From Cenococcum geophilum (lineage: Eukaryota): 64,000 nucleotides of DNA. The position numbers were made by a program, and so were the translations under genes. This document shows, piece after piece, positions 1 through 39,748 of this stretch. The notes beneath the pieces were generated by a model. The model ran no database searches. It had not been told where the DNA came from and was given only the letters and a program-made list of their open reading frames with translations. The stretch's first letter is position 1, and the number at the start of each line of letters is the position of its first letter. The DNA lies in assembly GCA_050273025.1 (NCBI GenBank), contig CP158635.1, positions 3,658,001 through 3,722,000 of the forward strand, written 5' to 3'.

Positions 1-129
1 GTCGCGGATATAATAACTATAGCCCCTGCTCCGACTAACGGAATTAGGTTCTTTAGTATTACTATTCCACCCTACCTTTAGATAGCATCTAGTAAAGGAT
101 TCCGTACGGTAGGTATAGCTAAGAATTAT

Positions 130-5459: not shown

Positions 5460-5900
5460 ATAAGGCATTAGTTCCTGTAGGGGAGAGGAAAACATAGCTA
5501 TAGGCTCCTGTAGGGGACTAAAAGCTATATAGGAATGTAAGCTATAGGGGATTGGTTCCTATAGGGCGGTAGAATATATAGGTATTGGCACCTATAGGGG
5601 ATTTGTTAGCGTAGGGGATTTGTTAGTATAGGGGATTTATTAGAGTAGGGGACTAGCTCCTATAGGGGATTTGTTAGTATAGGGGATTTATTAGAGGAGG
5701 GGACTAGCTCCTATAGGGGATTTATTAGCGTAGGGGATTTATTAGAGTAGGGGACTAGATCCTATAGGGGATTTATTAAAGTAGGGGACTGGTTCCTATA
5801 GGGCGGCGAAATACGTGGGCATTGGCTCCCGTAGGGGATTTGTTTAAGTAGGGGACTTATTTAAGTAGGGGATTGGTTAGAGTAGGGGATTAATTCTCCT
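5460..5900. repeat. 17-bp-period minisatellite (TAGGGGATTTRTTAGNR / TAGGGGACTAGCTCCTA) with 3-unit higher order
   Basis: Directly visible tandem 17-mers from ~5,595 to ~5,898, more degenerate copies to the left. Confidence 0.9.
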
Positions 5901-6159
5901 ACGGCCTCTATTTAGGCGGTATAAGGCGGCTCCTAATAGGCTAGCAAGTGGATTGTGTATTTTGTGGAAAAATAAAGCCTATATAGGATGGTAGGGTATA
6001 GGGACCTAATAATCTGGCGGAAGATTGGGTTATCCGCTTTTCTGGGTTTATTTAGCCTACTCTACGCTATTTTATATGCGTTTTAACTAAGGCTGCTACC
6101 TAGCCTTAGCCGCCCAAATCTTTAGTTGTGCTGTGGAAGAGTATAAGATAATAAAATAT

Positions 6160-8554
6160 TATTCTATCTACTCTGCTAATACCTTTAGATCCTTCTATAC
6201 TTGTTAAAGTATCTTCTTTATCCTAGAATATAGCTCTAGATTATCCTTCTCCTACCTCCTACTATTTGGAAATACTACTTTTTAGAGCCTATTAACCTAG
6301 GGGACTAATAACTAATAGTACGGCGTAAAGTACTCCTCCGCTGTTTTAATGAAATCACCTTTATAAGCTACCTCTCCTTTTTTTTTTTAACTTAGCTAGC
6401 TCTTTAGTGTCTATATAATTCCACTTCTTAAACCTTAGGATAGGCTTGCGCTCCTTATTTAGACCCTCGTAATAAATATACATCTAGAAAAGCACCTAGA
6501 AGAACGACTCTAAATTATACCTAAAGGAGTGTTTCTTACCTAAAAGCACTCCTATAGCTATAAACGCTCTCGTACTAGTCTTGCCCCGTACTCCCAAAGG
6601 TCCTTCTCGCTTCTCTTTAATCGCGAGATTAAGATTAATTAAGAATGACTTCTAGGAGGGATTGTTGTCTTCCTCGTTTATTAAGAGGTTGCCTATTAAA
6701 ATGTTATGTTAGAGGATACTAGCCTACGTATATAAAGACTTATATTCTTTAATGCTACCCTTTAGTGTAGTAAGCATTGTAGCCGGAGAGCTTGCCTTAT
6801 AAAGAGCCTTTTTATAGTCGTAAGTGATAACGCGTTAATGCACCCAATTCTATATAATAGGGCGCTTAATCGGAGAGCTTAAATATGGGCGCTTATTAGG
6901 CGGTAACGGGGCGTTAGTATAGCTAGATGACCTCTTTCTACTAATACTTTAGCCTTTCCTTATACTACCTTGTACTCTAGCTACACTTAGAGGTACTATT
7001 AAGCTTTTAGGCTTATAGTTTGTTGCTTTGGTAATATCTAGCCCCTTATGGATATTAAAGATGTTATTATCTTGTCCACTTATATAAATAGTCCTATAGT
7101 AATAGTACCTAGCCACGTTAATTACTCCTTTCTCTGCTGCCTTATATAGCAGTTTGCCTTCTTCCTTGCGCTCTAGGTACTGCTACGAGTCTTTAATAAC
7201 GAGAGGTATCTTAGAGGTATTACCCTTATAGTGCGCTTTCTAGTAAGTTGTTGCCTGACTAGTAATATAGGGTGCCCGCTTTATAAGTTTGTTAAGGATA
7301 AGACGCTTAGTCTAATTATTGCGTATGACCTTAATATATTGTTTGCCGTCTAATGTTAAAATAGTAGGGTTAAACCCAAGCTGCTTTTTATTTATTAAGA
7401 GAAACCCTAATATTACCGAGGTAAATTATAGTCCGTCTTTATTAATATCGAATAGTAATAATGTAATGCCTCCTACCTGGTTATATTCCTATAGCTATAT
7501 AATAGATCTATAGAGGGTAAAACCTAAGATAAAGTGACGATTGTCCTAAGTAGTGAAGACTTTTCTTACGTATTTCCCTAAAGCAAACCATGCCTGTGAG
7601 GCTATATTGGTGTTTAGATTACTCTTTAGTTTTCTTGGTATAAGTATATATAACTAATAGCATTAAGAGCTTTCGCTAGCTATTGGATTATCTATAAAAC
7701 TAATATCTAGCTTTTGCTTCGCCGTAGACCCTTATAAGGGCTGCTTAGTGTATGTGATAAGCTTTTGTTATATCTTTAGGGCGGACCTATACTTCTTTGT
7801 AAAGCCTAAAAATAATTTAATTAGGTTATTAAACCACTTTAGGATATTATCTTGCTCTGCGCTTTTAGGCTAGTTACGCTAGCCGCCCTTATTAGTGTAT
7901 AGTGGATTATCCCCTTCCTTATATTTCTTGAAAACGGTAGCGCTTGCCTCTTTAAGACCTTCCACTCCCCTAAAGAATGCTTTGTATAAGCTAGAAATCC
8001 CTATATAAAGAGGGCCTAGCTTCTCCTTTAAAACATTATTTACGTATTTCCTATGTTTGGACGAGTTAGCGAAGCTGCTTGTGTTGCGTAGATATAGGGT
8101 TTAAATATAGAATGGTAGCGGTCGGGGGGGAGGCGTAGATTTTGTGATAGTAGTGTATACCTTTTCCTAAATAACTTTATTAGATTTAATCCGGAGGATC
8201 GTATTTAGAAGAGGCAGGAACCGTTTAATGTTAAAGTTATTGGAATTAACTACTAAATTAAGTCTTAACAGATTACTAAGGAGGTTTTTATTGCCGCTAT
8301 TGGACGGTAATAAATAAGAAGTAGGAAGGCTCTATAGAGTAAGTATTAGATTAAGCAAAATATCCTTTAGTCCTATAGGCGTTAGATAAAAACTTATAAT
8401 AGGTCTATTAATAGTTACCTTTATTACCTATTTAGTGTAACGAGTTTAAAGAGCTAGGGATGCCCAGATCCTAATAAGTTAAGTTAAATAAATTGTAAAA
8501 GTTATTTAGCCCTTCCCTAATAGGCTTTGTTTTTAATCTAAAAAGATTTGCTAT
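6160..8554 (-). pseudogene. FunK1 fungal-type protein kinase (Pkinase_fungal), RIP-inactivated
   Basis: Raw minus translation ~6,840-6,300: H*RVITYDYKKALYKASS...SIL*HNILIGNLLINEE...FLINLNLAI...GKTSTRAFIAIGVLLGKKHSFRYNLESFF*VLF*MYIYY, matching FunK1 motifs RDISIGN, LIDLDLA, TGTRAFMA, HDLESFFWV after G>A/C>T reversal. Ends approximate. Confidence 0.9.
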
Positions 8555-11500
8555 TATAGGTAGGCGCGCTAAGAGCTATATTAGGAGGGCTAATGTAGTA
8601 GGTAGGTAGGCAGGCGGGGGGGGATTAAAGAGACCAGTATATAAGGATGGTATAATGATAGAGAAGTAAATAAGTATAGGGAGGTTGAATATATATTGGG
8701 CGCGTCTTAAAATAAGGAAATAGTAAGAGAGGAAAGTATAAGGGAGAAAGTAAGGTGCAAGCGGAACGTGAGGAGGATTTAAAGGTTAGGTGTGGAAAAG
8801 TTAAGCTAATTTAACGTGGCTTAGACTAAGGCTTTATGGGGCTTAGTTAAATACTAAGCTATAATAACCTAAAGTATAGGAACATTGTTTGCAGTCCTAG
8901 TTATATAGGTTAAAAATATAGTGCGTATATAGGGTTCTAGTATTATTAGAAAGTTATAGGCAGCATTTATTAGTAATTGTGGTTATTAGCTTTTAGTTTA
9001 TTCTGCGACGCGTAAGGCTCTAATATAGTAACGCTAAAAGGCGCTAGGCAAGGTATAGCTGGCGATAGCGGGTTAATTATTGGGTTAGTTATATAAGCAC
9101 CTATAATTAATTATGTAGCTGGTCCTAAAACGAGCTAAACCTAATATGCTAAATATAGATATAGCCAACCCTATTTTATAGCGCTTAATTAACCTATTTC
9201 CTGTAACTAAGATCTAGTTCTTAGAACTAGATCCTTTTTTAGAATCGCGCCCTTTTTACAGCAGTTAATTGGTCTACTTCGTAAACCTGAATTAGAATCT
9301 TGGTTTTAGAATTAGATTCTATTCCCGGAATTATAACTTAAGCTATAACTAAAAATAGCTCCTTTCTTCTAAGACCGTTAAACCGCTTAGCTTAACGCTA
9401 TACCTTTTTAGCTATATTTAGTACGTTTGGCTTAGAATTGGGATAGAATAAAGTCTTTAGAATTAGATCTAGTTCTTAAAATAAGATCCTATTTTTAGAG
9501 TTATAACTTAGGCCAATATTAAAAGAGATATCCTATATTTATTCTCAATATTTCCACCTTATTAATATAAAATTTAGAGTTAACTCGTACCCTAGTTACC
9601 TATAAAAACGCTAGAAACTTTAATACCTTAACTTTAATTCTTTATGGAGGACCAAGTGAGTTATAGGGCGGCTGACTTATTGCTATTAAGCATATAAAGG
9701 TAGAGGACTTTACTATAAGCGAGTTCTTAACTTTAATTTAATATATATGCAAATAATAATAAGATACTCTTAATATAGAAGCAACTAGATAGAAAAATAA
9801 TGCCAAGCTAAAGAAATTCTAATTGGTGCCTTAATTCTTAACGCTAGAAAATAAGAACGTAATTATGAAAATCTTTTCTTATAAGAAATTTCTTATTTCT
9901 TTAGCTTCTTAGAGGCTCTATCTATAGTGTAATCTACCTTTCTTTTACGTGTCCCTCTCCTTAATAGATCTAAATAATTATTTAGCGCCTCTTTTAGTTG
10001 GTCTCTTTGCTTATATAGTTTACCCTTTTAAGCTATCTCTATTATAATATCTTTAAGCGGTTTATATATCCTAGTATAATAATAGAGGTAATGTGGGTTT
10101 TTAGTATAGTATAATATAAGTTTCTTATGCGGTATACCCGCGGGTAAAACCCAGGTAGGATACTAGCATACTACTATAATAGGACTATATATAAATACAA
10201 CTAATCTATATCTAGGGTTTTGGAGACGCTTTAAGTCCTCTATTATATAGTAAGTTAGCAACCATAATAAGAGATACTTTAGTTGTCTATCTAAAATTAT
10301 AGCATTAGAAATTATTAATACTTTAGTTAGGGGAGATATATCTCTAAAGAAGTTTGTATAATTAGCTAAACTATTCTCTACTTAACTATTAGTATTACTA
10401 AAAAATATATAGGTGTTTTATAAATATACTTAGAGGTACTAGTAAACCTTTAATATGGCCCTCTTTTAGTTAAGGTAAGTCTATTTTAGCCTCGCTATAG
10501 CTCTTTATTAGCTTAAGTAAGACTGTTTTAGTTTTGCTACGGCCTTCTAGGCTCTTAAGGTAATTAGCGTATATTTCTATATCCTCTTATATATTACCCT
10601 CCGTATTATTATTAATTCCATAAGAGTTAACCTTATTAGGTATTTAAGTAGGTATATAAGGTATCTATTTCTATATAGGGTCGGAAAGCTATAATTATTT
10701 CTTCTCCCTACTAGCAGATGTTATGTCTTTATTATTAATGTAATTTTAGGATAATTTAAGGTTTCTAGTAAGTTAATAAATAGGTATATTGTTTTCGGGG
10801 CGATAGTATATTGTAATATTTTTATAAGTACTAATTAAGGACCTATAGGTTATATTAGCAACGTATCTAAGCTTAGTTAAGGTAATATATATAATATCTG
10901 GTATTCTTATAGGGATATTAAGGGATATATGGTTAAGAGGTTAAATTTAAAGATAAGTTAAATTAATAGCATATAAAAACTAGGAGCATAATATTTATAT
11001 TCTATTTCTCTTCTAGGGCAGAGTTAGGATAGAAGGTAAAAGGGAAAGGCGGAGTATACTAGCCGCCCTTTTCTACTTTATATGGTGTTTGTGGTATAAT
11101 ATTTAGTGGCTATAATTACTCTTAGCTTATATATTGTCTGCGCCTGAGATTATAGGTGCCTAGAGTAATTTATAAGTGAGGCATTATTAGGGGTAGCTAT
11201 TAGCTAAGCTGCTGCTAAACTTAAATAGCTAACAATCCCTAACGGACGCCGTATACCTTAGTAGGGTTTAGAAGCGTTCGCATAAAGTTATAAACTAGAA
11301 TTAGAAGTTAATAATAACCCCTAATAACGCCTCTCTTAGCAGGAATAGTATTATATAATTTACTTTTAACGCCTATCCTTTCTGGGGCAAGACACTGCCT
11401 AAGTAGTAGACTTATCCTAGCTAGTTAATCTTATATATTAACCCCCCATCTGTGGTAAAGGAGCTATTAGTACCTTTAGGGTGGTTTAATTACTATTCTA

Positions 11501-12599
11501 GCTAAGCCCTTTATAAGCGCTCCGCCTTATATAGGCGGTAATTAACTCCTATTAATCTGCCTTGTGTTAGGGGAGATCTTTTACTTAAAGCGCTAAGCAG
11601 CCGGTACTTAGAGGTTTATAGGCTTATTCTATATTCTAATAATATTAACTATAATTTCTCCTTAAGTGGTATCCGTAACCCTAAGTACCTATAAGCGTAG
11701 CGTCCCTAAATTATTAGCTAGTGAGTAGGCGTTTATAGATAGAGAAACCGACTTTAGAGATAACGGCAATATAGAGGCGTTAGCTAGTTGGGAAAGTAAC
11801 TTTAGTAATAAGGATTAAGAATAGAATGCAGAGATATTATATAACGGAGAAAATAGTTTTAGTACTAAAGATTAAGAAATAGGGGTAAATAGTAATAAAG
11901 AGATGTCGAGCGACGAGGCTATATAGGCGACGGTTGGATATAGTGGCCTTAGTTTTATAGTCTTAAATCTATAAGTATAGGGTATAAATATAAAGAAGAT
12001 TTCTAATAAAAGCTAGTAAAAGGGTTAAAACTTTGGCTACTTTTTGTTTAGCCTATCGCGAAATAAAATAATATTTTACTATTCCTACCAAAGTCTCTAC
12101 CCGCTTGACTTATAGCGAGCTATAAAGTATTTGCGATAATTTATGCTTTTACTTAGATAAATTTATTTACTACCTTAAAAGTAATAATAGAAGGAAAATC
12201 TATGCTAATGACCTAGGATTTTTTAAATTTCTTATGGACCTGGGACGCATACTACCTTAGTAACTATTAGTCGTGTTTAAGACTACGGTACTTATAGATT
12301 TATATCTTAAGGATATAAATATATTTTTTTTATAGTGTTTTCTTTTTATTTAAATTATTTCTCTGGTTATGGTATATAGTGGTTATTTATCTATTCCGGT
12401 ATAGTAGGGAGGGGTAATTAGGTTACGCGAGAGGGGTTAGACTTATAGCTACGCTTATAGGGCTGTTTATATAGGAACTTCTCTAAGTATATATAAGGGG
12501 TCTTTATATAGGAACTTCTTTAATATTTCTAGATCTAGGACTTATATATTTCTTTTTTTTTTATAGTTCTAGTATTTTCCTAATATTTACTTCCTATTT

Positions 12600-13220
12600 A
12601 TATACTAGGCGTTAATAGAGGGCGCTAGGTCAGATTACCCTACTTATACAATCACTCTATTTATATAATTACTCTACTTATACAATCGCCTAGCTTGTAC
12701 GATTACCTAGCTTATATAATTACCCAGCTCGCATAATCACCTAGTTTACATGATCGCCTAGCTCGTATAATTACCTAGCTTATAGGATTGCCTAGCTTTT
12801 ATAAGCATTATGCTTATATAGTCACCTAGCTCGCACAATTACCTAGCTTATAGGATTGGCCAGCTCCTATGAGCATCTAGCTCGCACAATTACCTAGTTC
12901 GCACGATTGCCTAGCTTATATAATTACTTAGCTTATAGAATTGCCCAGCTTCTATAAGCACTATATTTATATAATCACCTAGCTTGTAGGATTAGCCAGC
13001 TCCTATAAGTATTTAGCTCGTATAATTAAAGCCGAAGTTATTAAACCTATTAATACCCTATTTACACACTAGGCATTAATTAGAGGGCGCTAAGTTAGAC
13101 TATTTTACTTATACGATTACCTAGCTTATAGGATCCCCTAGCTCCTACGAGCCCCTAGCTCCTATAAGCCCCTAGCTTTTATAAGCCCCTAGCTTCTATA
13201 ACCTCCTAGCTTATAAGACT
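12600..13220. repeat. 17-bp-period minisatellite (ATYRCCTAGCTYRYRYA-like) in two blocks
   Basis: Tandem units such as attacctagcttatata, atcacctagtttacatg, agcccctagctcctata; a shared leader (ctaggcRttaat...agagggcgcta) precedes each block at ~12,605 and ~13,069. Confidence 0.88.
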
Positions 13221-13779
13221 AAAGCTATAGCTACTAAATCCGTTAAGATCTTTACTACACGTACGTTAGAGCAGGCACTTATAATATTATTAGGTCAGTA
13301 TAGGGGTATATATAAAAGATAGGCCGGTATATAGGATGTATTAGCATATAGCTAGGGAAAAAGTAGAATAGTGAAATTGGCGGGCTGGTACGCAGGAATA
13401 TAATACTATTTAACTTTGCTTAATATGGCTTAGAGGAGTGTAGAGCCTTAACCTAAGCTATAGGAATATGTTCTTTAACTAAGCCTCTATTATATAACCA
13501 CTAACTACTTCTAGGCGCTGCGGCTGTATACCCCGCCACTTACCCTTCTTAGAACTTTAGAAGTTATACTAGTCCTTAGTTAAGCGACTAACGTTTAAAG
13601 CTCTAACTAACTAGCTAAATCCGTCGCAGATTAGATAAAGCTAATAATGACTTCTTAATGCATATATAGAGGCTCTAGAGCTATATTTAATAAAGTAGAG
13701 TTCTTATTCTTAATCGTCCTATTTAACACCAAATTACTCCCTTAAATATTACTTAAGATATAGTTAAAACTAGAGAAAT

Positions 13780-14785
13780 ATGCCATCTAAAAGTATTCTA
13801 TTTGGCTTAGCGCAGCTTATAAATAGCGAGAAATATAATAACTTAAAACTTATATGCTAGGGGCTGGAGTTTAAAGTCTATAAAGCGATTATATATACCC
13901 AATCTCTTATACTTACAGCTGCCTATAATAGAGGCTTTTAGGTAAAAGCTAACTAAATATTTAGTAGAATTGACCCTAACTAACTAACTAACGGGTAGGA
14001 GGCGGCGACTAATATTATAAATATTAACGAGTTCGATTCCGGTACCGTTAAGAGGATGATCTAATTTATATATAAGAGGGATTATAAGAATAGTAAGGAG
14101 GAGTAAGGATCTAATATTAACGACGCTGATGCCTTATCGCTATCTAAACTAGATAATAGCGGTGGCGATGATAAAGATATAATGATACGGCCGATAACGG
14201 CCCATATTACACTTTGTCACGTCTATATTAATGTAATTACTAATTACTATAATATACTACAGCTAAAAGAGCTTGCGAATATAAAAATCTAATATATTTT
14301 AGGAACTAGCTGGTCCGTAAATAGGTTTCCTAATATTATTAAGGATGTCTTTAGCCTAATAGGCGACTTAGTATTATATAATATAATTACCTTAATAGCG
14401 GCTAAGTATATTAAAGACCTTATTAAACTTAGGGACTTTATAGAGCTAGACGTTATAAGCAATTTCGCCATCGGTATTATACGGACAGCGATTACCGCAT
14501 CTAAGGATATGGAGGAAAATTTTATGCTAAAACTTTAAGCTGTTTAATCTCAGCTATAATAAATAGAATTACTGCTTTAATCCACTAAGGTAAGGTATGT
14601 CGCGGCTAAGCGCAAAAGTAAAAATATTAATAACTATCTTAATACCCTCTGTACGACTAGGACCTATTATAATATTAATTGCAGAGCTGAGTTTATATAT
14701 TATATTAAGGACAGTAGTTATCTATCCGACCCTAATTACCCTTATATACTTTGTTATAAAAGGTGCGAGTGTTATATATAAGTAA
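13780..14785 (+). pseudogene. BTB/POZ-domain protein, RIP-inactivated
   Basis: ATG 13,780; LAQLINSEKY...LKLIC*GLEFKVYKAIIYTQSLILTAAYNRGF, an intron, then EAATNIININEFDSGTVKRMI*FIYKRDY and TLCHVYINVITNYYNILQLKELA: typical fungal BTB fold plus following helices; Cys-rich tail. Confidence 0.88.
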
Positions 14786-14925
14786 AGATACATAGCTTAG
14801 GAGATCGGCTTAAGTAGGAAGTCATTATATTATTTAGGTTAATCTAAGAAATTCAAATGTATATCTCGTCCATAGTTAATCCATTAGATATTGTGTAGTA
14901 ACTATATTATCTATCTCCCATTAGC

Positions 14926-15077
14926 CTCCCCTTACCTTACCCCTTACCCTTTACCCCTTACCCCTTACCCTTTACCCCTTACTCCTTACCCCTTACTCCT
15001 TACCTCTTACCCTACCCTTTATCTTATCCTTTACCTTACCCTCACCTTTACCCTCACCTATTACCCCTTACCCCCCT
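14926..15077. repeat. (CCCCTTA)n-like C-rich simple repeat
   Basis: About 20 degenerate 6-7 bp units ccccttA/ccctca between the convergent BTB and captain 3' ends. Confidence 0.9.
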
Positions 15078-15312
15078 AGACGAATTATAAAATCCTAGTT
15101 ATTATATCTATTCTACTAAATACTAGAATAGGATTAGATAATAATAGACTAAAATAAAATAAAAAGTGGTAAAGAATAATAAGATAAGCGAGAAATAACT
15201 AGGAAAAGGTCCTATGTATAAGGAACGTATAGTTCTAAATTTACCAGTTATATACCTTTCTATTAGTACTAGAGGGTTAGTATAGGATTCTTATATAAGT
15301 AAGGCGACTTAC

Positions 15313-17834
15313 CTAGCAGTGCCTCTTAATTAGATGCTATACGCCATATATAAGGGCTACGTGATTTTTAAAATGCTTAAGTCCTTTAATCCACTCTAAA
15401 TAATAAGGATGCTTATAGCGGAACCTCTACCTAAACACTCCTTCTATAACGTGATTATTAAGATGCTTTTATAGTGTATCCTTTTTTATAAATAGGCGGG
15501 TCTGCCTTAGTATTAAGAGTTAGTTATCGCCAATATAGATAAGGCAAATAAGATTAGTAAACGTTATAGGATGCGGCAGCTGTATTATCTTAACACCCTC
15601 TTCCTTAATTGGGACCGTGCTCTACGTCTTATTTAGGTTTTCTTAAAAAGGCGAGTTTAAGCTAATATATTCTTTCTGCTGCTTTGCCTATTAATAGGTA
15701 CTAGTATTAGTGTTACTTATACCTCTTTTTACGCCTATTATACTTTAGTCTACTTTAGACCTAAGTTAAAGTCTAATAGCCTTGTTTAGGATCCTATTCT
15801 ACTAGCTTCTTATTAATTATAATACTTAACGAGATTACGGATAAACTTTATACGGAGTTTTATAGCGTGCCCTTTTTTAAGCTCGTTTAGCGGCTAAGAC
15901 AGCAGTTTAGCAATAGCAGCGCGTTTACGAAATTTATACTATATAGCTAAATGGGTAGGAATGTCCGTTCTAACGCTACCGCTAAGCTGTCTTTTAATAT
16001 TGTAATTATTAATAGCGTTATAAAAATTGAGAATGACTTAGTCCTCTTTTTGTTTATATAGGACGTTTATAACACTATAAAGTTTACGTCTAGCTTTATT
16101 GTAACGGTTATATAGTTTTATTCCCTTTACGGCGTTAATAAAGTAATATCCTTAGCTCCTAATCTTTCGCTTATATTGCTCTCGTTTCTTATAAAGCTAT
16201 AAAATATTAGGGTGTTAATTAAGTTCTAACTAGAATTTAAGTTTCTGCTTATTAGTTAGACCTATAGGGGCCCGCTTATCCCTTAAAATCCCTATCCGTG
16301 CGGCATATTAAATAAGGTTGTCCTATAATAAAGTCCTAAAGTAGATTAACTAGAAATTGCGCTTAATTAAATTAGGTAAATAAAACTATTAGTAGGTATT
16401 ACTGTAATAACCTATTATCTAATTTTGCTTTTCTAGAGTAAGGGTAGCTAAAAAGGTTAGTTAATAGATGCACTTATATTAAATTAGACACTTACTATTT
16501 AATTTTCTTCTAAACGCTTGTCGTAGCTAGTAAAGTTTAAGCGATTATTTAAACCTAGCTACTCGGCCTAACTATATGTAGTAATCACGGCATTTCTAGT
16601 AAGGGAATACTTTGGTGTCCGACACTCCCCTATAACTAGCTATTATCTTAATATCTTAAAAGATGGGTTGTTCCTCCATCTGCTTCTTAAACTTTACTTT
16701 AAAACTCTCTTTATTTACTAGGATTTTAAGTTTAAAAATCTCTTCTAGTAAAGTATAATAGCGTTAAAATATATTATCCGCAATAGTAAGGCTTATAAGA
16801 TAGGATAGAATATAAAAAGCTAGGATGCTTTTAAGACGGAAAATAAACCTCTTACTATAGGTCTATTAGCGCCATTCGCGCCATCTTTAATTAGTATCGC
16901 TATATACCGTCTACCTATGCCTTTAGAATTCTTAATATACACGAGACTTATAAGGGTAATAGTTGTGGTTTAATTAAAGTTTTTCACATCGCGAACTTTT
17001 AGGATTATGATATATTTATACAAAAGCGCTTTATTAGAGCCTCTTACGCTTAAACTTTTAATAAAAGCTTAGGGTCTTATTGCCGTAGCACTAGAGAGGA
17101 GGAGGATTGCTCCTATTTATACTCAAAAACGACTATAGTAAGGCTTTACGTCCATTGTTTAATAGGTATTAATAATTGTATATAAGTCTTATATATACAT
17201 TATATACTTTTCTTTCTCTAATATATCTAGCTCGTATATTAGCGTTAAGTAGGTTGGAATCCACTATAACAAATTAGCCAAGTTTTTTTTTTTAAAGGTT
17301 AAAGATCGCCCTATATCTTGTATATTAAGTTCTACGCCATTATTTATACTATAGCCTGCTATATCTATGAATTTGCATAGAATTTGTCTCTAGTACGCCT
17401 TAATCGCGCTTTCCTTTTTAATTCGAGAATTCTTTACGCGCTATTTAAGGTATATTTTAAACATATCGGCCACGTACTAATAAAGGGCCTCGGTTAGGTT
17501 AGACTTAACTTTTAGGTAGAACCTAAATATAAATTGTTAGTATTATAAGGTAAATCTTAGTTTAAATATAAACGAACTTTTCCTAATTCTAGAACTTATA
17601 CTTAATAAGAGAAGTAGACTAAGGCTTCTGTTTTAACTTCGCTCTTCCTTAACCCTTATAATACGCAATCTTCTGCCATAAATATTCCCCCTTAGACTTG
17701 GCGTCTTCCCTAGCTCTAGAGTTAGAGCTTAAATCTAAGTCTAAAGCTAGCTTAGAATAAGACGGCTTACCTAGTTTAAGGTTTAAGCTAGAGGCTAAAT
17801 CTGTATTTTGCCATTTCTTATTTTAAGAGGGCAT
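15313..17834 (-). pseudogene. DUF3435 tyrosine recombinase (Starship captain), multi-exon, RIP-inactivated
   Basis: ATG 17,834. Raw exons: MFKIYLK*RVKNSRIKKESAIKAY*RQI; WIPTYLTLIYELDILEKEK...GAILLLSSATAIRP*AFIKSLSVRGSNKALLYK; LGRVARFK*SLKLY*LRQAFRRKLNS; EKQN*IIGYYSNTY**FYL...RDKRAP; C-terminal Cys/His finger (CLIYIGD...KHL...HFKNHVALIYG). These match DUF3435 motifs (RP, LGRxAGF, YxLRR, MGH). Confidence 0.92.
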
Positions 17835-18450
17835 AGTGGTTAAACGCATAGTGTCTTAGTGCTTTAGTAGCTGCCAGTTACCTATACGTAAAAGCTAGCT
17901 TAAGAGTAACTACTATTAATAGGAACGCTAAAAAAGGCTCTATAGGAGATAGGCGTTCTTAAAAGCGGGACAGGGCTAAAAAACCCCATAAGTAGAAACC
18001 TAGAAATCGAGTATTAAAAGTGAATAATATAATAGCAGGGGAAAATGCATACGTAGCTACTGTGGGAAAATGGTTAAAGGAGCGTAGTATAGAAGGGAGG
18101 TTTTATCGGGTAAGGGTAGTACTTTTAGTAGAGGATAAGGACGAAGGTGGAAACTGGATTAAGTAGGCGGCGGACGTCCATAGCTTCTTAAATAGCTATT
18201 AAGGGACGTTTAGGGAGCTTCGAGAGGTGTGTTGTAGGGCTGCACGCGCGCTTCTAGGTTTGGTAGGTAAGAGAGACCCTACCGCCCTTGGCACGCTTAG
18301 CACGTTATAAAAGTGGCGACAGACATGGGTCTAAGCGAGGAGAAACAGCCTCCTAAAATGGGGGGTAGGAACCTCTAAATCCGGCTGCGTCTTCCCCAAT
18401 AACAAGATTCTAGTAGGAATAATAACTAAGGTTATATAATAAGCTATATA

Positions 18451-21400
18451 AAAAAAGCCATAGTAGCAGTAAAACTAGCCTAAAAACTACTTAATAAAGC
18501 AATCTAATATCGGAATCCTACTCCTAGTACTAAGAAACCCTATAAAACTATGTTGCCCCTATCCGCAAAGTATAGGGGACAACGGAGGGGCGTAGGCTCC
18601 CCGCTAGAGTCGCGAAAGTCGCGACGCGACAGAGCCGAACTATAAACTAGGTAGGTAATAACGCGAAAAGGATAGCTGCTAGCTTAACCAGCAGTGGCAA
18701 AAACTAAAGGAAATACTTAGATAAATTAAAGACGATCTTATAAAAGAGGAGGAAGAAACTCTACGGTACTAGATACTTACTTCCGTTTAAGAGGTAATAT
18801 AATAAGTTAAAGCCCTTTTAACGCGCCTAGCCCCCTAAACAACCTAAGAAAAAGAGACTAAGGCCTAGCTTAACTGGATTAAAGCTAGTATTAAGAAAAT
18901 TTAAAAAGAAATATATAAAGCAGGACCTTTAGGCTTAGGAGCCCCTTTAGTATAGGGCTAGACCTAGGCAGCCGTTACTGCGCAGGCGGCCCATATGGTA
19001 AACACAGTCGCGACACTATAGAGAGCAACCGTACGCGTCCGGCTTAAGGAGCCCTAGGGCCACGAACTATGGGAGCTCCTTAAGACTATCTAGAAGATAA
19101 TACTAAGTATATACGCGGTACGCACCCTTAATAGTAGGGACGTAGATGTTTATATCCCCTCCTAAATAATAAAGGACTAAATCCTAAACGGACTAGATAT
19201 GCTAGGACTAAAGATACTAAGGAAAGACTACCTCCTAGAAGTACCTAGGGTCCCGCTTAAAACCCTAATTAATAGTAAAAGAAACGTAGATAATGTGGAA
19301 TTAACCTAATCTATCTATAAAGCTATAAAGCGCCTTGTGCTTAGGATAGCTATTAGCTAAATCTAATGGCTATATAACCCTAAAGCGTAGGCGAAACGTT
19401 AGGTAAACCCTAGTAGTACTTAGAGAGAGCCTAAGAAGACTAGAGAAATAATTATAATTAGTGTTCTAACCTAGGCAATTTAATAAAAAATTATAAAAAG
19501 TGGGATAGTTATTAACTCCTAGCTCTTTAAAACTAGGCTATTTAAGAACAGCCTAATTATAAAGCAATGCTACCGCTATAACTAATAGGGATATATATAA
19601 AGCGTATATAGAAAGTAAATAAAATGCGGGTAATATACGGGACTATATAGCACTATGGATTACCCTAAGAAGAGGGTATCCTACGTTAATTACGGTAAAG
19701 CCTATAAAGTATAGTAAAGAAAGGAGTATAGGACCTTCTAAAGCTATTTTAAGGGTATTTAAATAAAAAGGATGGCCCTCTTAACGCAGTCGCTCCGTAT
19801 ATAAGAAGCTATAGAAATAATACTCCAATCTCCAATACTAGGAAATTTTATAATTATTACTAATAAAAAAAGAGGACGGGAAATATTGTACCTAGGGACC
19901 TAAGAATAACTACTTAAATGGGGACTAGGTAAACTATTATTTATTAAAAGAGCAAGTAGAGATAGATTATAAGTAAGGCTTTAGCTTCGCGCTAATAGAG
20001 TAATAATAATTACTAGTAAAAATAAAGAGGAATAGGACATAGATATAGATAAGCCTATACCCACTTAAAATGAGTAGGTATATAATTATCTAGTATAACT
20101 ACGGAAATGCAAACCAAGGGGTATATCGCCCCTTCTTTAACAGCGTTATACTGGTGGACTATTAGGTCCTTATAGTTTAGGAGCTGGCATATAATAGATA
20201 CACTAAATTAACTTACTGCCCTAGGGGATTTACACTTATATATAACGCTCTCCCTATAATAAAGGTCTGCTTTATAATTAGCTAGAATATTAATACTACG
20301 TATTAAAAACGCAGACAGTACGGCCCCTTTATTATAGCTCTATAGCTGCGCCTAGAAGGACTAAAGACTATAATTATTAACGTTTATAACCTACGCGGAA
20401 ATGGCCCCCAAATTAAGACATGGCTGGAGGTTAAAATAGCTATTAAGGAGGCTAAGGGAGAAATTATACTCCTAGGCGATTTTAATGCCCACTACCTAAT
20501 ATAGGGCGGAAAATATATAGCTAGCAAAGAGCAGGCGGAATACCTCCTGGCCGAAACTAATGCTAAAGGTCTTATACTCGCCATACTAAAAGGAGAACCT
20601 ATATAGAAAAGAGGGTAATAGGAGAGTGTAATTAACCTCACGTTTATATCACCAGACCTATATAGGAAAGTTAATTTCTATAGTATAGTTAAGGAATGGG
20701 CCCTTATAAGAGACTATATACCTATCCGCATCTAAATTAATAACGTAGGCTATCCGCCAGCGGAACGCTAGCGCTTCGCCCTTAGGAAGCTAAACTTATA
20801 AGACTTCTTCTAAAGCATTTAGGAGCTTAACTAGGCTATATCTAAAGATCCCCTTTATACCCTCTAGAAAGGGATTAAGTAAGCACTTAAATAATACTAC
20901 CTATAAGCATAGCCCAGCAAGTAGGCCCGCTAAGAATAGTTGCTATACGCTATACAGCTACACGCTAGCGCCCGCTAGGCGCAATAATAGCTCTAAGCTT
21001 ATAACAACCCCTAGGACCATTAAAGATATCTAGCACTAAGCAATTAACTGCAAAAAGAGACTAGGAGAGTTAGTTGTAATAACTAAAGGCGCTTTATCTA
21101 TAAACTTACTAAGGACTAAATAAAACCTTATAATAAGGGACTCTGGATTCTATTAAAGTAGAGTAGAAAAGCAAGCGTAGCGAAGGTGGACCCCTACTTA
21201 CTAGACCTTAGGAGGTCTACTAAGAACCCCCTAATAAATAATAACACTATAAAAGCTAAGATTCTTATAGCTAAGTTCTTCCCTAAAATAAGAATAGCGA
21301 ACTTAAATAATATTAAGATAAAAGCAATAATAGAATAAAGGGTACTTAATATTAGCCTAATTATCTTAATAGAAGAACTTAGTAAGCTAATTAGGAGCCT

Positions 21401-24400
21401 CTTAAATGGAAAAGCCTTAGGACTAGATGGTATACTAAATAAGGTTCTTAAAGTAGTTGTGTGACAGTGCTGGTGCGCGTCACCTGCCACATTTAACCAA
21501 TTAGGATTTTCCATGCCCGGCATGGAAAATCGCTATTGGCTCGCTTACCACTAGCGCCTTAGCGGCCCTCGCGACATGTCTACCTACTGCCCCTGAACGA
21601 TTCTCCTTCTTCTTCTCCTTAGCTTAGTATCTTTACTAGATAGCAATCCACAAGCTTCGGTTCAGAGGCAATTGTGCGAGCCGTCACATTATACTAAGCT
21701 CTCCTTCCACTGCCTGGGAAGGCCTTAATAATATCCCACCCCTAAAAAAGAGAAGATCTTCGTCTGCAATAACGCGTTAACACACTATACTCAGACATCT
21801 AAATAACTCTATACTGCCTACGAAGGCCTTAACAATACCCCACTTTGCGAGCCAGATAGGACTAGACCTATACCCCCCGGAATTAAAACCGAATTGTACA
21901 ATTCCGACGAACCCTAGGAAGCCAATAATGGCACCTAAAGCAAGCTTATCTAAAAGAGCTGCCCCAACCCAAGAAGAATACGAGATTTAATTGGGATCCG
22001 AAATTGAAGATAACGATGATATTATAGACGTATACAAGCAGATTCGTGCCCTAACGGCTAATTAAGAAGCTAACCGTCTCTAAGCTTAAAGCACACAGGA
22101 GACCCTACAAGAGATCCTAAACAGCCTTGCAGCTCTTTAAAGCAGCTTAGCTCCCCCTTTTAGAAGTCCTAGTTAACCTATCTACTTAACCAAGGATAAT
22201 ATACCAGGGAGTACGGAAACAATAACGAAGTAATTAAAGTCCGTTAAGCTCCTTGACCCCTAACCACTGTCTAATAGGATAGACCCTACCTTTAAGAATT
22301 AGAGGATTTAAATATAAGGAAAGCTCCGCGTTAACTATAACTATTTCCTTTCTAAAGAAGCTAAGATGCTTTACCTCTTTAGTTAAACTACTAGGGACGC
22401 CTAAAAGCACCTCCAAGCCAAGTTTGAGGACGAGTTACCTGTTCGGTTTACATCTGTTAATAAGATACTATAGCACCTAGCGGCTATCTATATAAACCTG
22501 AATAAAGTACGCAACGCTAGGTACAACTATAATCGCCTAATAATAAGACCGAACCAATTCTTTACTAAGTTTTAGACCTAATTCCTATACCTAGCAGGCG
22601 AAGGCTAGGTCCCCCTTAAAAACTACTAATTAGACCTATATAATAAACTAACAGTTTGATTATAAGAGAAGATTACGGTAGCCCTAGACGACCTACCAAC
22701 CCACTAAAGACTTATAGCCCGTTGTCTGTCATTGGATTTAAAACTACGGCGAATTAATACCCGCACCAATCGGTAGAAGAAATCCTATAGTAATTAAAAA
22801 CCGACAATTACACCTACTGGGGCTGGCACTGGAAAACTAGTGGAAAGTACCCCTATACCTAAGGTAGGTATAACTGCCCTTTAGTAGGCCTCTCCCAATT
22901 GACCACGTGCTACGCCCCTAACTAATACCTATTGTAACACCCTAATCGACCCTGCTACAGCCACGTGCTTTAACTGCGGAAAAGATAGATACTTTGCCTC
23001 GTCTTGCCCAGAGCCGAAAGATATAGGCGATATTAAGGAGATAGAGGAAGGAGAAACGTCCGACGAGTCGGGAAAAGAAGAACCCTAGGGAAAGACTCCC
23101 CCCTAGGGTACCCTATTGATCTTAAAGAGATTAATCTAAGTTAGTTAATGGGTGGAAAACACTTTACGGTTCTATATATAGTATCTTAAAATGCATATAG
23201 AGTTAATATAACCGCCCTTATTAACACTGGAGCAAATGGCTTTGCCTTTATAGATACTACCTATATAACTAACGTTGCTAGGTTCCTAAATATAAAAGCC
23301 ACCTAGCTAGAGAAGCCTGTTTAAGTAAAAGGCTATAACGGCCAAGCCGGTAAGCCGGTTACCTACGTATTAAAGTTATATATTTCCCTTAATAGACGAC
23401 GCCTATATGGTATACCCTTCTGTATTCTAAACCTAGGTTCCTATAACATAATCCTTAGTTAGAAGTAGATATCCTATTTCAATATCTGGCTAAACGTTTA
23501 ATAAAGGTAGCTTATTTGGCCAAAGGATAGACCGAAATTACCCTCCTTTATTAAAGAGATCCGAACTAACTGTAGGACATTAGCCGTAAAGGCGGATCCC
23601 ACCTATAAGTAAAATATTAGGGACTGGGACCTAGCCTTTATATAGGAAGACGCCCGTTACGAAGCTAGTAAGAACCCTATACTAACGAAAATACTCTCCC
23701 GTAGTGCTATGGTTAAAGAGGACTCTATATACGGAAGCGGAACGGATAGTAACGTAAAAGTCGCCTAAGTTGCGAAGATCCGACCTATATGGAAGAGGAC
23801 CTACTAATAGGATACGAGAGATAGCCTCTGGAAGATGCAGTAGGAGCTAAAGGGAGGAACGAGAAGGTCGATACCCTAGAAGCCTCGGAAATTATATATA
23901 CCCCTACTATCACGTAACCCTCCTACGTTAGATATTGCGGCTATTAGTGCTATAGGGTTCTACTTTAATATATACCAGAAGGACAACGAGGTTTTTATAA
24001 CTAGCTTATACGAAATCAACCGGATTATTAATAAGAAGGAAGAAGGGCTAGCTGAGGAAAGTAATGAGGAGCTAGTTAAGCGCCTCTTTCCTACCTATCT
24101 CTTAAGCTATAGAGACGCGTTCTCGAAAGCAGCTTTAGATATGCTACCCCCCTACCAAATATATAATTATAAGATTTAATTAGAAGCCAATAACTTGCTA
24201 GGATATAGCCCCCTCTATTAATAATTAACGGATAAGCTAAAGGCAATAAAGCAGTACTTAATTAATAACCTTAATAAAGGGTTTATCGAGCCTAGCTAAG
24301 CCCCTTTTGCTTTCCCTATTCTATTTATAAAAAAGCCTAATAGAGGCCTTTGTTTTTGTATTGACTATTAGAAACTAAACGCTATTACTTAAAAGGATCG

Positions 24401-27400
24401 GTATTCTATTCCTTTAATTGACGAGACCCTTATACGTTTAAGCTAGGTAAAGATCTTTACCAAACTTAATATCCGCTAAGCTTTCTATTAAATTAGGATA
24501 GACCCTATATCTAAAGATTTAATAACGTTCCGTACCCGTTATGGGTCCTATAAATATAAAGTCCTTCCTTTTAGGTTAATAAATGGGCTAGCTATATACT
24601 AAAGGTACATAAATAATGTCCTTTTTAACTACCTTAATAAGTTCTACACGGTATACCTGGATAATATCCTTATATACTTGGACGACAAACTTAAGCATAA
24701 AGTTCATGTTAAGAAGGTCCTAGAGAGATTACGGAACGCGGGCTTACAAGTTAATATTAAGAAATGTAAATTTAGGGTAAAACGCACGAAGTACCTTGGG
24801 TTTATTGTGAGTATAGATGGGATTAAAGTTAACCCTAAAAAGGTTAAAGCAATCCGTAGCTAGAAGCCCCCTTGTACTATAAAGGGGATCCAGTCCTTCC
24901 TTAGCTTTTATAATTTCTATTACTAGTTTATCTATAACTATAGAGTTATAGCAAAGCCTCTTATACGACTTACCCAGAAAGATACGCCTTTTATATTTAA
25001 TAATGACTATATAGAGGCCTTCGGAGAGTTAAAGGATCGGCTTATCTCTTCTCTAATTCTGTGTTATTATAACCCGGATCTTAAATTAATGCTAGAAATG
25101 GATACTTCCGACGGAGTTATAGTAGGAGTCCTATTACAGTTACATCTGGACGGCAAATAGTACCCTATTACTTTCTTCTTAAAAATAATAGACCTGGCCG
25201 AGTATAACTACGAAGTATATAATAAAGAAATGCTGGCTATTATTTAATCGTTGTCCTAATAGCGCGCGGAGCTTAAAGGCATGAATTCTTGGATTAAGGT
25301 CTATACTAATTATAAAGCCTTAGAGTATTTTATAATAATAAAGCAGCTTACCGGCCGATAGGCTTAATAGGCTAAAATACTCTCTTAATTCTTTTTTACG
25401 ATTATATACCGCCCGGGTACATAAAACTCTAAGGCTAATGCTTTAACCTAGAGAGAATAGGACGTAGGCCCCTAGGATAAGCTAAAGGCGCAACATTAAA
25501 TATGCGCCCTCCTCTGTCCTAAACAGCTTGACCCACGTATCCTTAAGGAACTGAGCTCTAAAGAGAATAAGCTAGTACCTATAAAAGGAGAGTTCTTAGA
25601 CAAGCTAATGGGATTAGTTAACTACATCTTAACCATAAACCGCACGGTTAAATCCCTAAAGGCCCTCCGCGACTAGGCCTTAAAAGGTAACCCTAATTTA
25701 GAAATAGAAGAAGAACTACTCTTATACTAAGAACGGCTTATAGTTCCGGATATTAACAACCTACGGACAGAGCTAATCCGTGAGGCCCACTGTTAAGTCT
25801 TAATGGCGCACCTTGGTTAGGATAAGACCCACCAACTACTAGCGCCCTATTACTATTGGTGAGGACTCCTATTTAATATAAAACGATTTATTAGAAACTG
25901 CTACGCCTATAAACGTGCGGATGCCCCTAGGGATCGAACTCCTAGGTAGTTACGTCTATTGCCAGTTCTAGAACGCCCTTGGCAATATATTATAATAGAC
26001 TTTAAGTCGTTTCTAAAGGACGCCCACGGCTATAACGCGGCCTTTATAGTAATTAACCGACTATATAAGTAATCCGTCTCCCTCCCTTGCTTTAAGACCA
26101 CAACTGCGAAGGATATGGCTCGCCTTTACATCAATAATATCTATCGATTCTATGGCGCTCCCAAATTAATTATCTCTAATTGTGGTCCCTAGTTTATATT
26201 GGACTTCTAGAATAAATTTTGCCGTATCCTTAGGATTAAGATTAAGCTCTCTACCGCATTCTACCCTTAGACTAATAGCTAAACTAAGATTATAAACCAG
26301 TACCTTAACTAGCGACTACGTCCCTTTGTAAACTACTATTAGGATAACTAGTCGGAATTACTGCCTATAATAGACTACGCGCAGCTTACGCTCCCCCATA
26401 ATAGCATAGGGATATCGCCATTTGAACTGCTTAACGGGTACGCACTACGAACGTCCTTTAATTGGGATAGGCCTACTAAACCTACTACGGCTCGCGAACG
26501 CCTTAGCCACGAAGAGGCCTAGGCATTTGCTGAGAGAATACACGGGGCCTAGGAGACTGCTTAAATAATTATAAAAAAGGCGTAAGAGAAGAAAGAGGCC
26601 GACGTAAATTAGTATTGTCGCGAAGTAGACTTCTAAGTAGGAGATAGGGTATAGGTATTAACAAAAAACTAGAAAACCTAGAGGCCAAGCCGCAAGTTAG
26701 ACCACTAAATGGCTGGTCTATATAAGATTTTGGAGAAGGTAGGATACTCCTTTAGGGTCGAACTACCAGATTCAATAAAGATCTACCCTATTTTCTCCCC
26801 AGACCGATTATAAAAGGCTGCGAATAACCCACTGCCTAGATAGTATAACGACCCTCCGCCGCCAATTTAGATTGTAGAGGATAAGGAATAGGAAGTTAAA
26901 GAGATCCTAGCAGTTAAGAAGGTCTATAGTGTCTTAAAATACCGTATAAGCTAGGTTGGCCACGATAAGGACCTAGAATGGTATCCTGCATCTAATTTTA
27001 AGTACTCCCCCTATAAACTACAAGACTTCCACCTAGCCTACCTAGACCTCCCCAGACCACCAAGCAAGTTAGATAGCTGGATTAAATGCTAGAAAGAAGG
27101 GTTAGATAATTATAATAATTTAGACAATAATAAGGAACTTGGATAACGCCTAAGGGCAGGCTTTTTTAAGAGGGGGGGGTAATGTGACGGTGCTGGTGCG
27201 CGTCACCTGCTACATTCAACCAATTAGGATTTTCCATGCCCGGCATGGAAAATCGCTATTGGCTCGCTTACCACTAGCGCCTTGGCGGCCCTCGCGACAT
27301 ATCTACCTACTGCCCCTAAACGATTCTCCTTCTTCTTCTCCTTAGCTTAGTATCTTTACTAGATAGCAATCCACAAGCTTCAGTTCAGAGGCAATTGTGC

Positions 27401-29682
27401 GAGCCGTCACAAGTTGCTCCGGTTATTGTAAAAGACTTAGTAAATATAGCTAGTTACTACTTAGCCAGCGGAACAATACTAAAAAGCCTTAAAGAATCTA
27501 TAACTATAGTTTTACGAAAGGAGGGGAAAAAAGACTATTCTCTCCTAGGCAGCTATAGACTAATTACTCTTAAAAACACGCTAGTAAAAGTCTTAAAGAA
27601 GTATATAGCTAATATTATATCTAAGGTAGCGGAGGAGTATAGGCTACTCCCCTAGAACTAGATAGGAGTAAGGCGTAAGCGATCTATACTATTAGCGGTA
27701 GGACTACTTAGCTTCTATGTATAGATAGCGTAGTAAACGCGCTATAGGTATATAGTGTTAATACTAAGCCTAGATCTAGTAGGGGCATTCGACAATATCT
27801 TATATAAAAGGCTTCTATACATCCTAAAAAGAAAGGGCTTTTTAAAGTAGCTTATAGACGTTATATAAAGCTTCCTAATAGCACGTAAGACCCGTATTAA
27901 GTTTATAGGATATAAGAGCAATTAGATCTAGACGCAGATAGGTATTCCCTAGGGGTCTCCCCTATTGCTAATCCTATTTCTCTTCTTTATATTAGAGCTC
28001 CTAGAGGAATTCTAGAGCCCTAATAACGGTACGCTAGGATTTAGCTTTATAGATAATACGAACCTTATTACCTAGGGGGACTTTACAGCAAAGAACTGTC
28101 GATGGTTAGAGACCGCTTATAACTACTACGCGGTATAGGTAAACCGACACGGCGCGATATTCGCCCTAGAAAAATATTAGCTTATACACTTTATAAGGCA
28201 ATAGTGCTACGCCGTTATAGACCTTGCGTCTACTGTGCGCATTACTGGCTATAAGATAGCTCCCTAGAAAACCAGTATATAGGTTCTAGGGATTTAGGTA
28301 GACCCTAAGCTTTAGTGGAAAGAATAGGTTAAAAAGGCTATAAGTAAGGGCTCAGTAGCCTTCAAAGCGATATTAAGGATCACCACGTCTATATAGGGCC
28401 CATTAATACGCTGCTTGCGCCTCCTATATATAGCTACGGTTTAACTAGCGATACTATATAGCGCCTAAGTATAGGGAGTACGGGACGACGGCGGAACGCT
28501 AGCGAAAAGCCTAATTAAACTGCTATAGAAGGTTTAGAATAGGTGTCTCCGTAGGATTACAGGGGTATATTAGCGAACACTAATAGCTGTAATGGAGAAG
28601 GAAGCAGCTATCCCCCTAATATAGCTCTATATAGAAATAACAGCCCTCTAAAAAGCCGCTAAGACGGCTCCTAATAGGGTAGAAAAGGAATTAGTAGAGG
28701 CACTTAACGGTATCTAGAAAACACTAGTAAAGCGCCAGCAAAAAATAAGACGGCTACTAGTACTACTAAAAGCGCTTAGAGACCGCGTAAGGAACTATAA
28801 GAATAAGATATAGGGCTTCCTTATATACTAGAGGGACTATATAGAGCGGGAAGCCGCGATAAATCCCTATAGGCGTAGCTAGCGGAATGCCGGCAGAACG
28901 TAAACGGAGCGCCGCTAACGTATAGGAGGTTACTAGCACCACTAGTAGGTAACTACCCTTATTGCGAAATGGGCTAACCTAGAGTAGCGCCGACGGTGGT
29001 AGGCGAAGGCTAAAGACCGTACAGAAACTATATAAAGGACCCTATGGGGTAAACCTATAATACTACTATATAAAGACCTAATAAAAGTAGAGGCTATAGT
29101 ACTGTTTCTTCTTTATATAGAGGTAATAGGGCTTAATGCATAGCTTGCATCTATTAGAGTACTAGTAATTCTACTACGGTATAAATGCGGCTAGATAAAA
29201 CAGATAGTTTACTATATATTACTCTAGTATCCACACTACTAAAGGGTAAACTTTATAGCAAAATGCGCGTCTAAATGCCTTTAGGATGTCTTAAGTAATA
29301 AAAGAAGCGCCTAAGTGGCCGTAAAATGGCTAGTATAGTTAGGTGCCTTAACCTAGTTCCGGGCTATAAAGGCAATGGATATAGAGGATATAAGTAGATA
29401 CTAGCCCTTCTAAAGCTTAGAGGACTGGTAAAAGAATATAGGTAAAAGGATAAGGGAAGAAGGGGTAGAGTAAGATTGTCCGCGATGCGCGGTTAGTCGG
29501 CTTAAGATGTAGACCTTTAGATAGGTAGAAGGCGAGCCGCCAGCGCCCCGATATCGGAACGCTGTTATCTCTCTAGCGCGGCCCGCGACCGGGTTTTCTC
29601 TAAGTTAGAGTTTTTTCTATAGAAGGTATTAGCCTGCGTGGACCCACTAGGAGGACCGGGACGGGCGGTAAATTGAATTTAT
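18451..29682 (+). mobile_element. Full-length Tad1-like LINE, RIP-inactivated, interrupted by a Gypsy element
   Basis: 16-bp TSD TATAATAAGCTATATA (18,435-18,450 and 29,683-29,698); ORF1 with zinc knuckles at ~19,560-19,740; ORF2 from ATG 20,070 with AP endonuclease (LLGDFNAH), RT (LRKEGKKDYSL...YRLITLKNTL; GIP*GSPL; FIDNT) and C-terminal CCHC near 29,190. Confidence 0.93.
21460..27411 (+). mobile_element. Ty3/Gypsy chromovirus B, full length, RIP-inactivated
   Basis: 229-bp LTRs 21,460-21,688 and 27,183-27,411 (TG...CA); TSD AGTTG; G-run PPT before 27,183; gag CCHC (~22,965), protease, RT (YLDNILIY ~24,655), RNase H, integrase, chromodomain (~26,885-27,030). Confidence 0.97.
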
Positions 29683-32181: not shown

Positions 32182-32373
32182 TATAAGCTTTGCAGTGTGG
32201 GAATTAAACGAGCGACTTGATTGTAAATCTATGGAAATCAAGTGGTATAAATACATAAAAGTAGACCCCTAACTCCGGAGCCCATGACTTATATTAAACG
32301 TATCCGAGACATACGAGGGTAGTGCTGATGCAGGTGAAATAGGGTAATATGCAAGGTCCAGTAGTCGGTTACA
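32182..32373. mobile_element. Solo LTR (192 bp) inserted in Gypsy C integrase region
   Basis: TSD GCGTC at 32,177-32,181 and 32,374-32,378; ends TATAAGC (RIP of TGTAAGC)...GGTTACA; much less RIP than flanks. Confidence 0.85.
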
Positions 32374-39339: not shown

Positions 39340-39748
39340 ACGTGTTTTACAAGCGAGCCGTTAGCCTCAAAAACTCACCAAAAAGTAGAAAATCCACACC
39401 TTAATATCTTAACAACCACTTAATAATAAATTTTAATAATTTGGATTTAGACTTTTATATATACTTTATAGCGTCTATTAAATTTATATAGTATATAGTT
39501 TAGTAGTTTTTAAGATATAGCGATTTAGCCTTATTTTAGCCCCCAAATCGCTATATCTTAAAAACTACTAAACTATATACTATATAAATTTAATAGACGC
39601 TATAAAGTATATATAAAAGTCTAAATCCAAATTATTAAAATTTATTATTAAGTGGTTGTTAAGATATTAAGGTGTGGATTTTCTACTTTTTGGTGAGTTT
39701 TTGAGGCTAACGGCTTGCTTGGACTGACGGCTCGCTTGTAAAACACGT
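39340..39748. mobile_element. Foldback MITE of pogo/Fot1 (Tc1-mariner) type
   Basis: Ends ACGTGTTTTACAAGCGAGCCG ... CGGCTCGCTTGTAAAACACGT flanked by TA; whole element is an inverted repeat around an 18-nt loop (39,527-39,544). Confidence 0.9.

Follow-up and report, generated by a model that had tools for sequence, protein, structure and literature searches.

Captain, cargo and degradation of the element

The window analysed was a 64,000-bp stretch of a 178-Mb, 7-contig Cenococcum geophilum genome (G000:C1:3,658,001-3,722,000; coordinates given without a contig are those of the window). Positions 1-51,000 were AT-rich and lacked any open reading frame of 150 amino acids. The first part of this region (1-18,414, minus strand) belonged to a Starship killed by RIP, as displayed by its junctions, a colinear copy and RIP indices (TpA/ApT 1.65 and (CA+TG)/(AC+GT) 0.50, compared with 0.81 and 1.20 for the window's genic part). 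Together with the captain's relatives, these indices would indicate a filamentous ascomycete in which RIP operates. The whole element covered C1:3,649,158-3,676,414, reaching 8,843 bp beyond the left edge of the window, and measured 27,257 bp between two AG dinucleotides. A second copy on another contig (C3:18.73-18.75 Mb) was colinear with all 27,257 bp at 90.5% identity. The locus is thus a dead, RIP-inactivated Starship, an ordinary member of an already known kind of element.

The captain gene, coding for a DUF3435 tyrosine recombinase with a C-terminal zinc-finger-like part, was found at 15,319-17,834 on the minus strand, RIP-broken, where an intact relative aligned in four blocks. Read from the ATG at 17,834, its frame matched DUF3435 (PF11917) with an E-value of 1.5e-23 and 83.9 bits (cut-off 25.8), and carried 57 stops in the first 698 codons, introns included. 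The captain was the first gene of the element and pointed inward, its ATG lying 580 bp inside the end. A plus-strand ATG at 18,995 was discarded as captain start, its frame belonging to a neighbouring LINE. No intact captain was found among the copies examined, in which all long matches carried 23-65 stops. When stops were read as X, the captain retrieved a sole match, KAF2179944.1, 53-55% identical in two core blocks and listed as fam04, i.e., Serenity, in Tables S4 and 1 of PMC11162782. This one best match, together with the published table, suggests a Serenity-type (family 4) Starship, the family in which Sanctuary is placed by PMC12257634.

A Pfam scan covering about 11 of the 27 kb displayed a RIP-broken fungal protein kinase as cargo (PF17667, 6,481-7,707, minus strand, E 3.7e-81), as well as a possible BTB/POZ-like remnant (13,990-14,151, plus strand) that fell short of the curated cut-off (E 0.014). 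With 27,257 bp and cargo, the element lay above the 15-kb minimum of Starships. Degenerate tandem repeats were also present within the cargo (5,510-5,895 and 12,593-13,218).

Junctions and nested insertions in the repeat island

Two fragments of one D-family long terminal repeat (LTR) were found to the right of the Starship, both on the plus strand: a middle piece at 18,415-18,450 (LTR positions 111-146) and a tail at 29,683-29,972 (LTR positions 131-421). A self-comparison aligned both of them with the LTRs at either end of the D element at 34,087-43,576. The middle piece was identical at 35 of 36 positions to a same-strand D LTR upstream (E 6e-15) and at 32 of 36 to the D LTR at 43,145-43,576, while the tail shared 84-87% identity with D-family LTRs. 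The original prediction had read these fragments as a single D-family LTR lacking about 110 bp, with homology ending at 18,414/18,415, 580 bp from the captain ATG; the matched LTR positions and the distance between 17,834 and 18,414 agreed with both statements, and none of the matches was at chance level. It had further proposed that the Starship was inserted into this LTR, so that the missing segment would be found next to its far end, oriented the same way. A search of 200 kb of upstream contig obtained one same-strand D-LTR fragment with the 5' part only (C1:3,649,042-157), in which LTR positions 1-112 corresponded to C1:3,649,046-3,649,157. These roughly 112 bp, absent from the window, abutted the far end in register and overlapped the middle piece by 2 bp, which bore out the insertion. 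From this segment the element length (27,257 bp), a common AG and a 6-bp repeat could be read without a second genome, as anticipated, the repeat being imperfect.

The left (far) junction reads CTATATAATAAG up to the boundary and TTATTTTG beyond it, and the right (captain-end) junction reads GATTCTAGT followed by AGGAATAA. Uninterrupted D LTRs carried ATAAG-GAAT or ACGAG-GAAT across the junction, with a single AG. The AG common to both junctions (18,415-18,416, plus strand) is thus present twice at the Starship and no target base was lost; target bases were neither duplicated nor deleted. On the captain strand, this AG is part of the flanking target hexamer ATTCCT (18,415-18,420, minus strand), which fits the family rule ATWHCT and forms an imperfect 6-bp repeat with ATAACT, the element's own end. 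Given the mismatch between the two hexamers, the repeat reflects homology between element and target rather than a target duplication, as likewise proposed for Hephaestus (10.1101/2022.08.04.502770) and Sanctuary (PMC12506042) in the parts consulted. The first two bases of the captain end (18,413-18,414; GT on the plus strand, AC on the captain strand) were hypervariable among sister copies. The terminal inverted repeat was weak: its two arms, one near the captain end (18,392-18,408, minus strand) and one near the far end, lay 6 and 2 bp inward of these ends and agreed at 12 of 17 positions, a score reached by 75 of 2000 shuffles, and the comparison over 200-bp ends was not significant (62 of 500 shuffles).

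The same boundary could in principle be the breakpoint of a deletion or rearrangement which joined a captain-bearing repeat to an LTR fragment by chance. The island was indeed rearranged elsewhere, the 5' LTR of an element named Gypsy C being gone with about 1.3 kb, and some sister pairs displayed mismatched flanks. Such a breakpoint would nevertheless have to account for the complementary LTR piece at the far end, in register and with a 2-bp overlap, and for 48 other captain ends in the genome, which end at the identical base and independently set the boundary at 18,414/18,415; we regard it as refuted by these observations and scarcely credible. Integration of a 27.3-kb Serenity-type Starship by captain-catalysed recombination at ATWHCT-N6-A, in a Gypsy D 3' LTR itself located in Gypsy C, is in our view very probable. 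Following published Starship work, the element would have moved as an excised circle with the joint ATAACT-ACTAGAAT, and the crossover would have used the CT/AG homology.

The broken LTR was rejected as a solo LTR: it was preceded by the D polypurine tract, so that it closes a complete D element as its 3' LTR, and TTAAC was found on both sides. The 5' LTR of this element starts at C1:3,625,725, and the TTAAC target duplication flanks both of its ends, one copy being located in the Gypsy C reverse transcriptase (29,973-29,977, plus strand) and its partner before the 5' LTR. The same 3' LTR had also received a LINE (18,451-29,682, plus strand) coding for an endonuclease (PF14529, E 3.5e-7) and a reverse transcriptase (PF00078, E 4.8e-14), bounded by an exact 16-bp target duplication (TATAATAAGCTATATA, at 18,435-18,450 and 29,683-29,698). 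Another Gypsy element was nested in the LINE (21,460-27,411, plus strand; LTRs 21,460-21,688 and 27,183-27,411, 96.9% identical). The nesting order is then D into Gypsy C, followed, in either order, by the Starship and the LINE in the same D LTR about 20 bp apart, and by the last Gypsy into the LINE. In the interior of the other D element (34,087-43,576), a small 183-bp direct-repeat-bounded element (36,644-37,864) and an inverted repeat of 374 bp (39,336-39,752) were also observed.

The 3' part of Gypsy C (29,973-51,022, plus strand) was split by two further LTR elements into pieces at 29,973-34,101, 43,579-44,273 and 50,244-51,022, and ended with its 3' LTR (50,808-51,022) followed by CCGTC. 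Sequence past 29,972 resumed in the Gypsy C reverse transcriptase, as expected if the D LTR interrupts that gene. The 5' half of Gypsy C had been expected further left, with a 5' LTR preceded by CCGTC. About 2.15 kb of it was recovered upstream on the same strand (C1:3,625,584-727 and 3,570,922-3,572,931). Set against L053, a complete copy of Gypsy C, the stretch directly before the D 5' LTR proved to be the 145 bp of C expected there, with 2.0 kb more on the other side of a second D insertion. The 5' part was not immediately upstream of the broken LTR, because that LTR closes a complete D element nested in C. The first 1.3 kb, including the 5' LTR, was absent, and no CCGTC was found. As regards the Starship, the earlier inference was therefore correct; as regards Gypsy C, it was partly wrong.

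No Gypsy C 5' LTR was detected in 200 kb upstream. A RIP-tolerant, genome-wide pattern for the LTR (23 bases, such that a copy mutated within them would escape) gave 13 matches, none preceded by CCGTC, and none of the 12 examined broke at the matching point. For the repeats flanking the break, 30 loci were inspected and none held the 5' part. Gypsy C breaks off there against the end of an unrelated high-copy repeat that has been reduced to about 150 bp. Another repeat, of 2.3 kb, comes next, after which the DNA is richer in GC and no longer has a RIP look. A separate deletion at the edge of the repeat island would be the simplest reading for the lost 5' end. A second Starship at the break was considered and dismissed, no captain-like match being present within 200 kb upstream.

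The high-copy terminus (L019:2783-2925, i.e., C1:3,570,783-925) carried subterminal tandem repeats, ended in ...AAAATGCTAAT and gave more than 30 matches; it was abutted by the truncated 2.3-kb repeat piece (L019:500-2776), which had 3-6 other copies. On the opposite side of the island, short inverted-repeat elements were found in unmutated DNA just outside the Gypsy C 3' LTR (51,369-51,518 and 51,658-51,846).

Sister copies and the target rule of the family

A RIP-tolerant pattern detected at least 49 captain ends of this Starship family in the genome, with no control match. At least 47 far ends were obtained (30 by pattern and 17 from similarity matches), and at least 37 end pairs lay within 200 kb, spanning 27.1-150 kb. 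As the interrupted repeats serve as their own empty sites, a single genome provided 49 captain and 47 far junctions. The element-borne hexamer ATAACT was fixed, while the target hexamer varied: among 49 copies it was ATAACT in 24, ATTACT in 18 and ATACCT in three, the singletons being ATTCCT, ATATCT, ATCCCT and one out of register. ATWHCT, the repeat consensus of Sanctuary as given in PMC12506042, was matched by 47 of the 49. In addition, all 47 of 47 far flanks had an A at the seventh base past the hexamer, for which the base composition of the flanks gives a chance probability of about 2e-20. The target rule of the family is ATWHCT-N6-A, read from mutated DNA since the flanks were altered by RIP, and it links Serenity to Hephaestus.

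Nineteen of the 37 pairs had an uninterrupted homologous site among the loci examined, 17 of them ungapped at the junction, and in all 17 the dinucleotide of the far flank agreed with the empty site up to transitions. Many flanks matched other repeats among the loci examined, which indicated residence in islands of transposable elements. The family would have multiplied while active, mostly into other repeats, before RIP killed the copies examined.

The high copy number might alternatively have arisen by passive duplication within larger carriers or segmental duplications instead of transposition of the Starship itself. At least six captain ends shared a single D-interior site and other sites recurred two or three times; as several copies occupy one site of the same repeat family, the 49 insertions are not all proven independent. 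Flanks of most copies were nevertheless unrelated, one target rule was common to all of them, and the variable dinucleotide was not the same in copies at a common site (TT, AA and GA at one of them), so that passive duplication appears an improbable source of the copy number. Transposition of the Starship itself is retained here, with captain and cargo remnants and dozens of copies with the same ends at many sites.

The shared D-interior site was represented in the window around 35,895 (minus strand), and this Starship occupied it at no fewer than six loci of the genome (L123, L125, L130, L147, L151 and L154). At least three pairs had flanks from different sites: L032/L003 (C3:17.13-17.18 Mb), L179/L160 (C7:65-105 kb) and L168/L119 (C1:6.21-6.24 Mb). 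Ectopic recombination between copies, or mispairing of ends, is possible for these pairs.

Starships are described as low in copy number in the consulted part of PMC11162782, a tendency from which the 49 captain ends depart. A title and abstract search, with subscription papers mostly outside it, retrieved no Starship family of comparable copy number, and in the accessible text of PMC12910237, on a repeat-expanded fungal genome, the word Starship was present solely in the reference list. Small size for a Starship and high copy number, set against the low-copy Starships of PMC11162782, would fit a Crypton-like tyrosine-recombinase transposon. Such an element is, however, most improbable given the DUF3435 domain, the captain-first layout, the cargo and the Sanctuary-type repeat, and the family medians published in the same source start at 27,297 bp.

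The element studied is best compared with Sanctuary, a Serenity Starship of Bipolaris sorokiniana (PMC12506042, PMC12257634). According to the sections consulted, both have a DUF3435 captain as first gene and a 6-bp imperfect repeat with a variable target side (ATWHCT) and a fixed, element-borne 3' side (PMC12506042), and the nearest intact captains of the element studied belong to family 4. The fixed 3' hexamer is ATACCT in Sanctuary, against ATAACT here, and the described length is 47-196 kb, against 27 kb (PMC12506042). The Starship studied also differs from Sanctuary in being RIP-dead, in its fungal kinase cargo and in having at least 49 ends in one genome; no chromodomain gene was found in the 4.3 kb of its far end that were scanned.

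Hephaestus, of family 2, has an A that is likewise invariant and equally far from the core (TTAC-N7-A, compared with TWHC-T-N6-A here; 10.1101/2022.08.04.502770), and its published circle joint contains ACTAGAAT in register with the 5' end of the element studied (10.64898/2026.09.21.753150). Both reports, in the parts consulted, describe a target restored without duplication. Hephaestus nevertheless belongs to another family: the core of the Starship studied tolerates H where that of Hephaestus has A, and the latter is described as not AT-biased, whereas the former sits in repeats. The value of the present data lies less in the single locus than in the family-wide observations, namely the target rule, obtained for a family that has been little studied, and the variable dinucleotide.

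A variable dinucleotide at the captain end

Captain ends were compared in a reference-anchored alignment. Their first two bases were GT in 27 of 48 copies and any of eight other dinucleotides in the remaining 21, while a 49th copy lacked exactly these two bases. The three bases before and the two after were fixed in 48 or 49 of 49 copies. Transversions occurred at the two variable sites in 7 and 15 of 48 copies, against 0.64% of the cells over 1,428 columns, and only two of the 1,428 columns showed four bases in two or more copies. RIP cannot generate transversions.

The tree and neighbour tests used 46 of the 49 copies, the other three having fewer than 500 aligned bases. On a transversion-only tree, which was short and poorly resolved, 20 variants of the dinucleotide needed 20 changes, while 21 ordinary columns needed 1-7. 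The variants were thus not inherited.

A source of the two bases was sought in the targets. The dinucleotide was identical to that of its own target in 3 of 20 cases (p 0.15), comparisons with targets of near relatives gave p-values of 0.075 or higher, and single-position offsets gave a family-wise p of 0.43. In offset scans that left out two chimeric-looking pairs, 11 of the 15 changed bases agreed with target positions -7/-6 when the scan was kept in register (family-wise p 0.028); this match was not repeated in unpaired copies, where 4 of 9 changed bases agreed when read by eye. Offset copying from target positions -7/-6 was consequently not accepted, the p 0.028 signal being without replication, and offset copying as such appears very unlikely.

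The dinucleotide could also be a coupling sequence as known from CTnDOT and Tn916, i.e., bases of donor or target flanks brought in through a heteroduplex overlap beside the 2-bp homology. The geometry of IntDOT fits, with a conserved dinucleotide beside a variable coupling sequence (PMC2817482, in the part consulted), the composition of the second base was that of the matching target position (p 0.47), and the signal at -7/-6 would point the same way. Against it stand the lack of more than chance identity with own or near relatives' targets, the lack of inheritance, the failed repetition in unpaired copies and purine/pyrimidine classes that differed from those of the target dinucleotides (p 0.007). 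A coupling sequence is accordingly rather doubtful. The likeness to CTnDOT and Tn916 resides in a tyrosine recombinase, a crossover at a 2-bp homology and variable adjoining bases (PMC2817482, same part); the Starship studied differs in varying at two bases only, which are not inherited and were traced to no flank. These systems are a working analogy and would not imply membership.

Three insertions at one target sequence carried TT, AA and GA. On balance, the dinucleotide is probably a non-inherited scar, left during integration or an abortive excision where the recombinase cuts or right next to that point. A carry-over from vanished donor flanks is unlikely, and some other cause is quite unlikely. 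As a tentative extension of the scar, clade-1 captains might cut at or beside the AC that starts ACTAGAAT and, in roughly four copies out of ten, leave a two-base scar that is error-prone; copies with such a scar would have no descendants and may be trapped. If so, strand exchange by this recombinase, whose cut site has so far only been assumed, could be located from the 49 fossil junctions, which would also help explain dozens of copies of one Starship family in one genome. No description of variable terminal bases in Starships was retrieved by title and abstract, subscription papers being mostly outside this search, and variable first bases are not mentioned in the consulted parts of the two Hephaestus reports (10.1101/2022.08.04.502770, 10.64898/2026.09.21.753150). 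With this dinucleotide, reads already available from experimental insertions could be used to test where captain strand exchange takes place and how faithful it is.

Other DUF3435 genes were abundant in the genome. Among 342 candidates, 100 were scored and gave 165 matches, nearly all with RIP-type stops, and the candidates read as several other high-copy Starship families. One DUF3435 gene (L070/L074, C3:7,969,165-7,970,527), without tblastn similarity to the captain region of the Starship studied, was far less mutated, with a single stop in its Pfam match.
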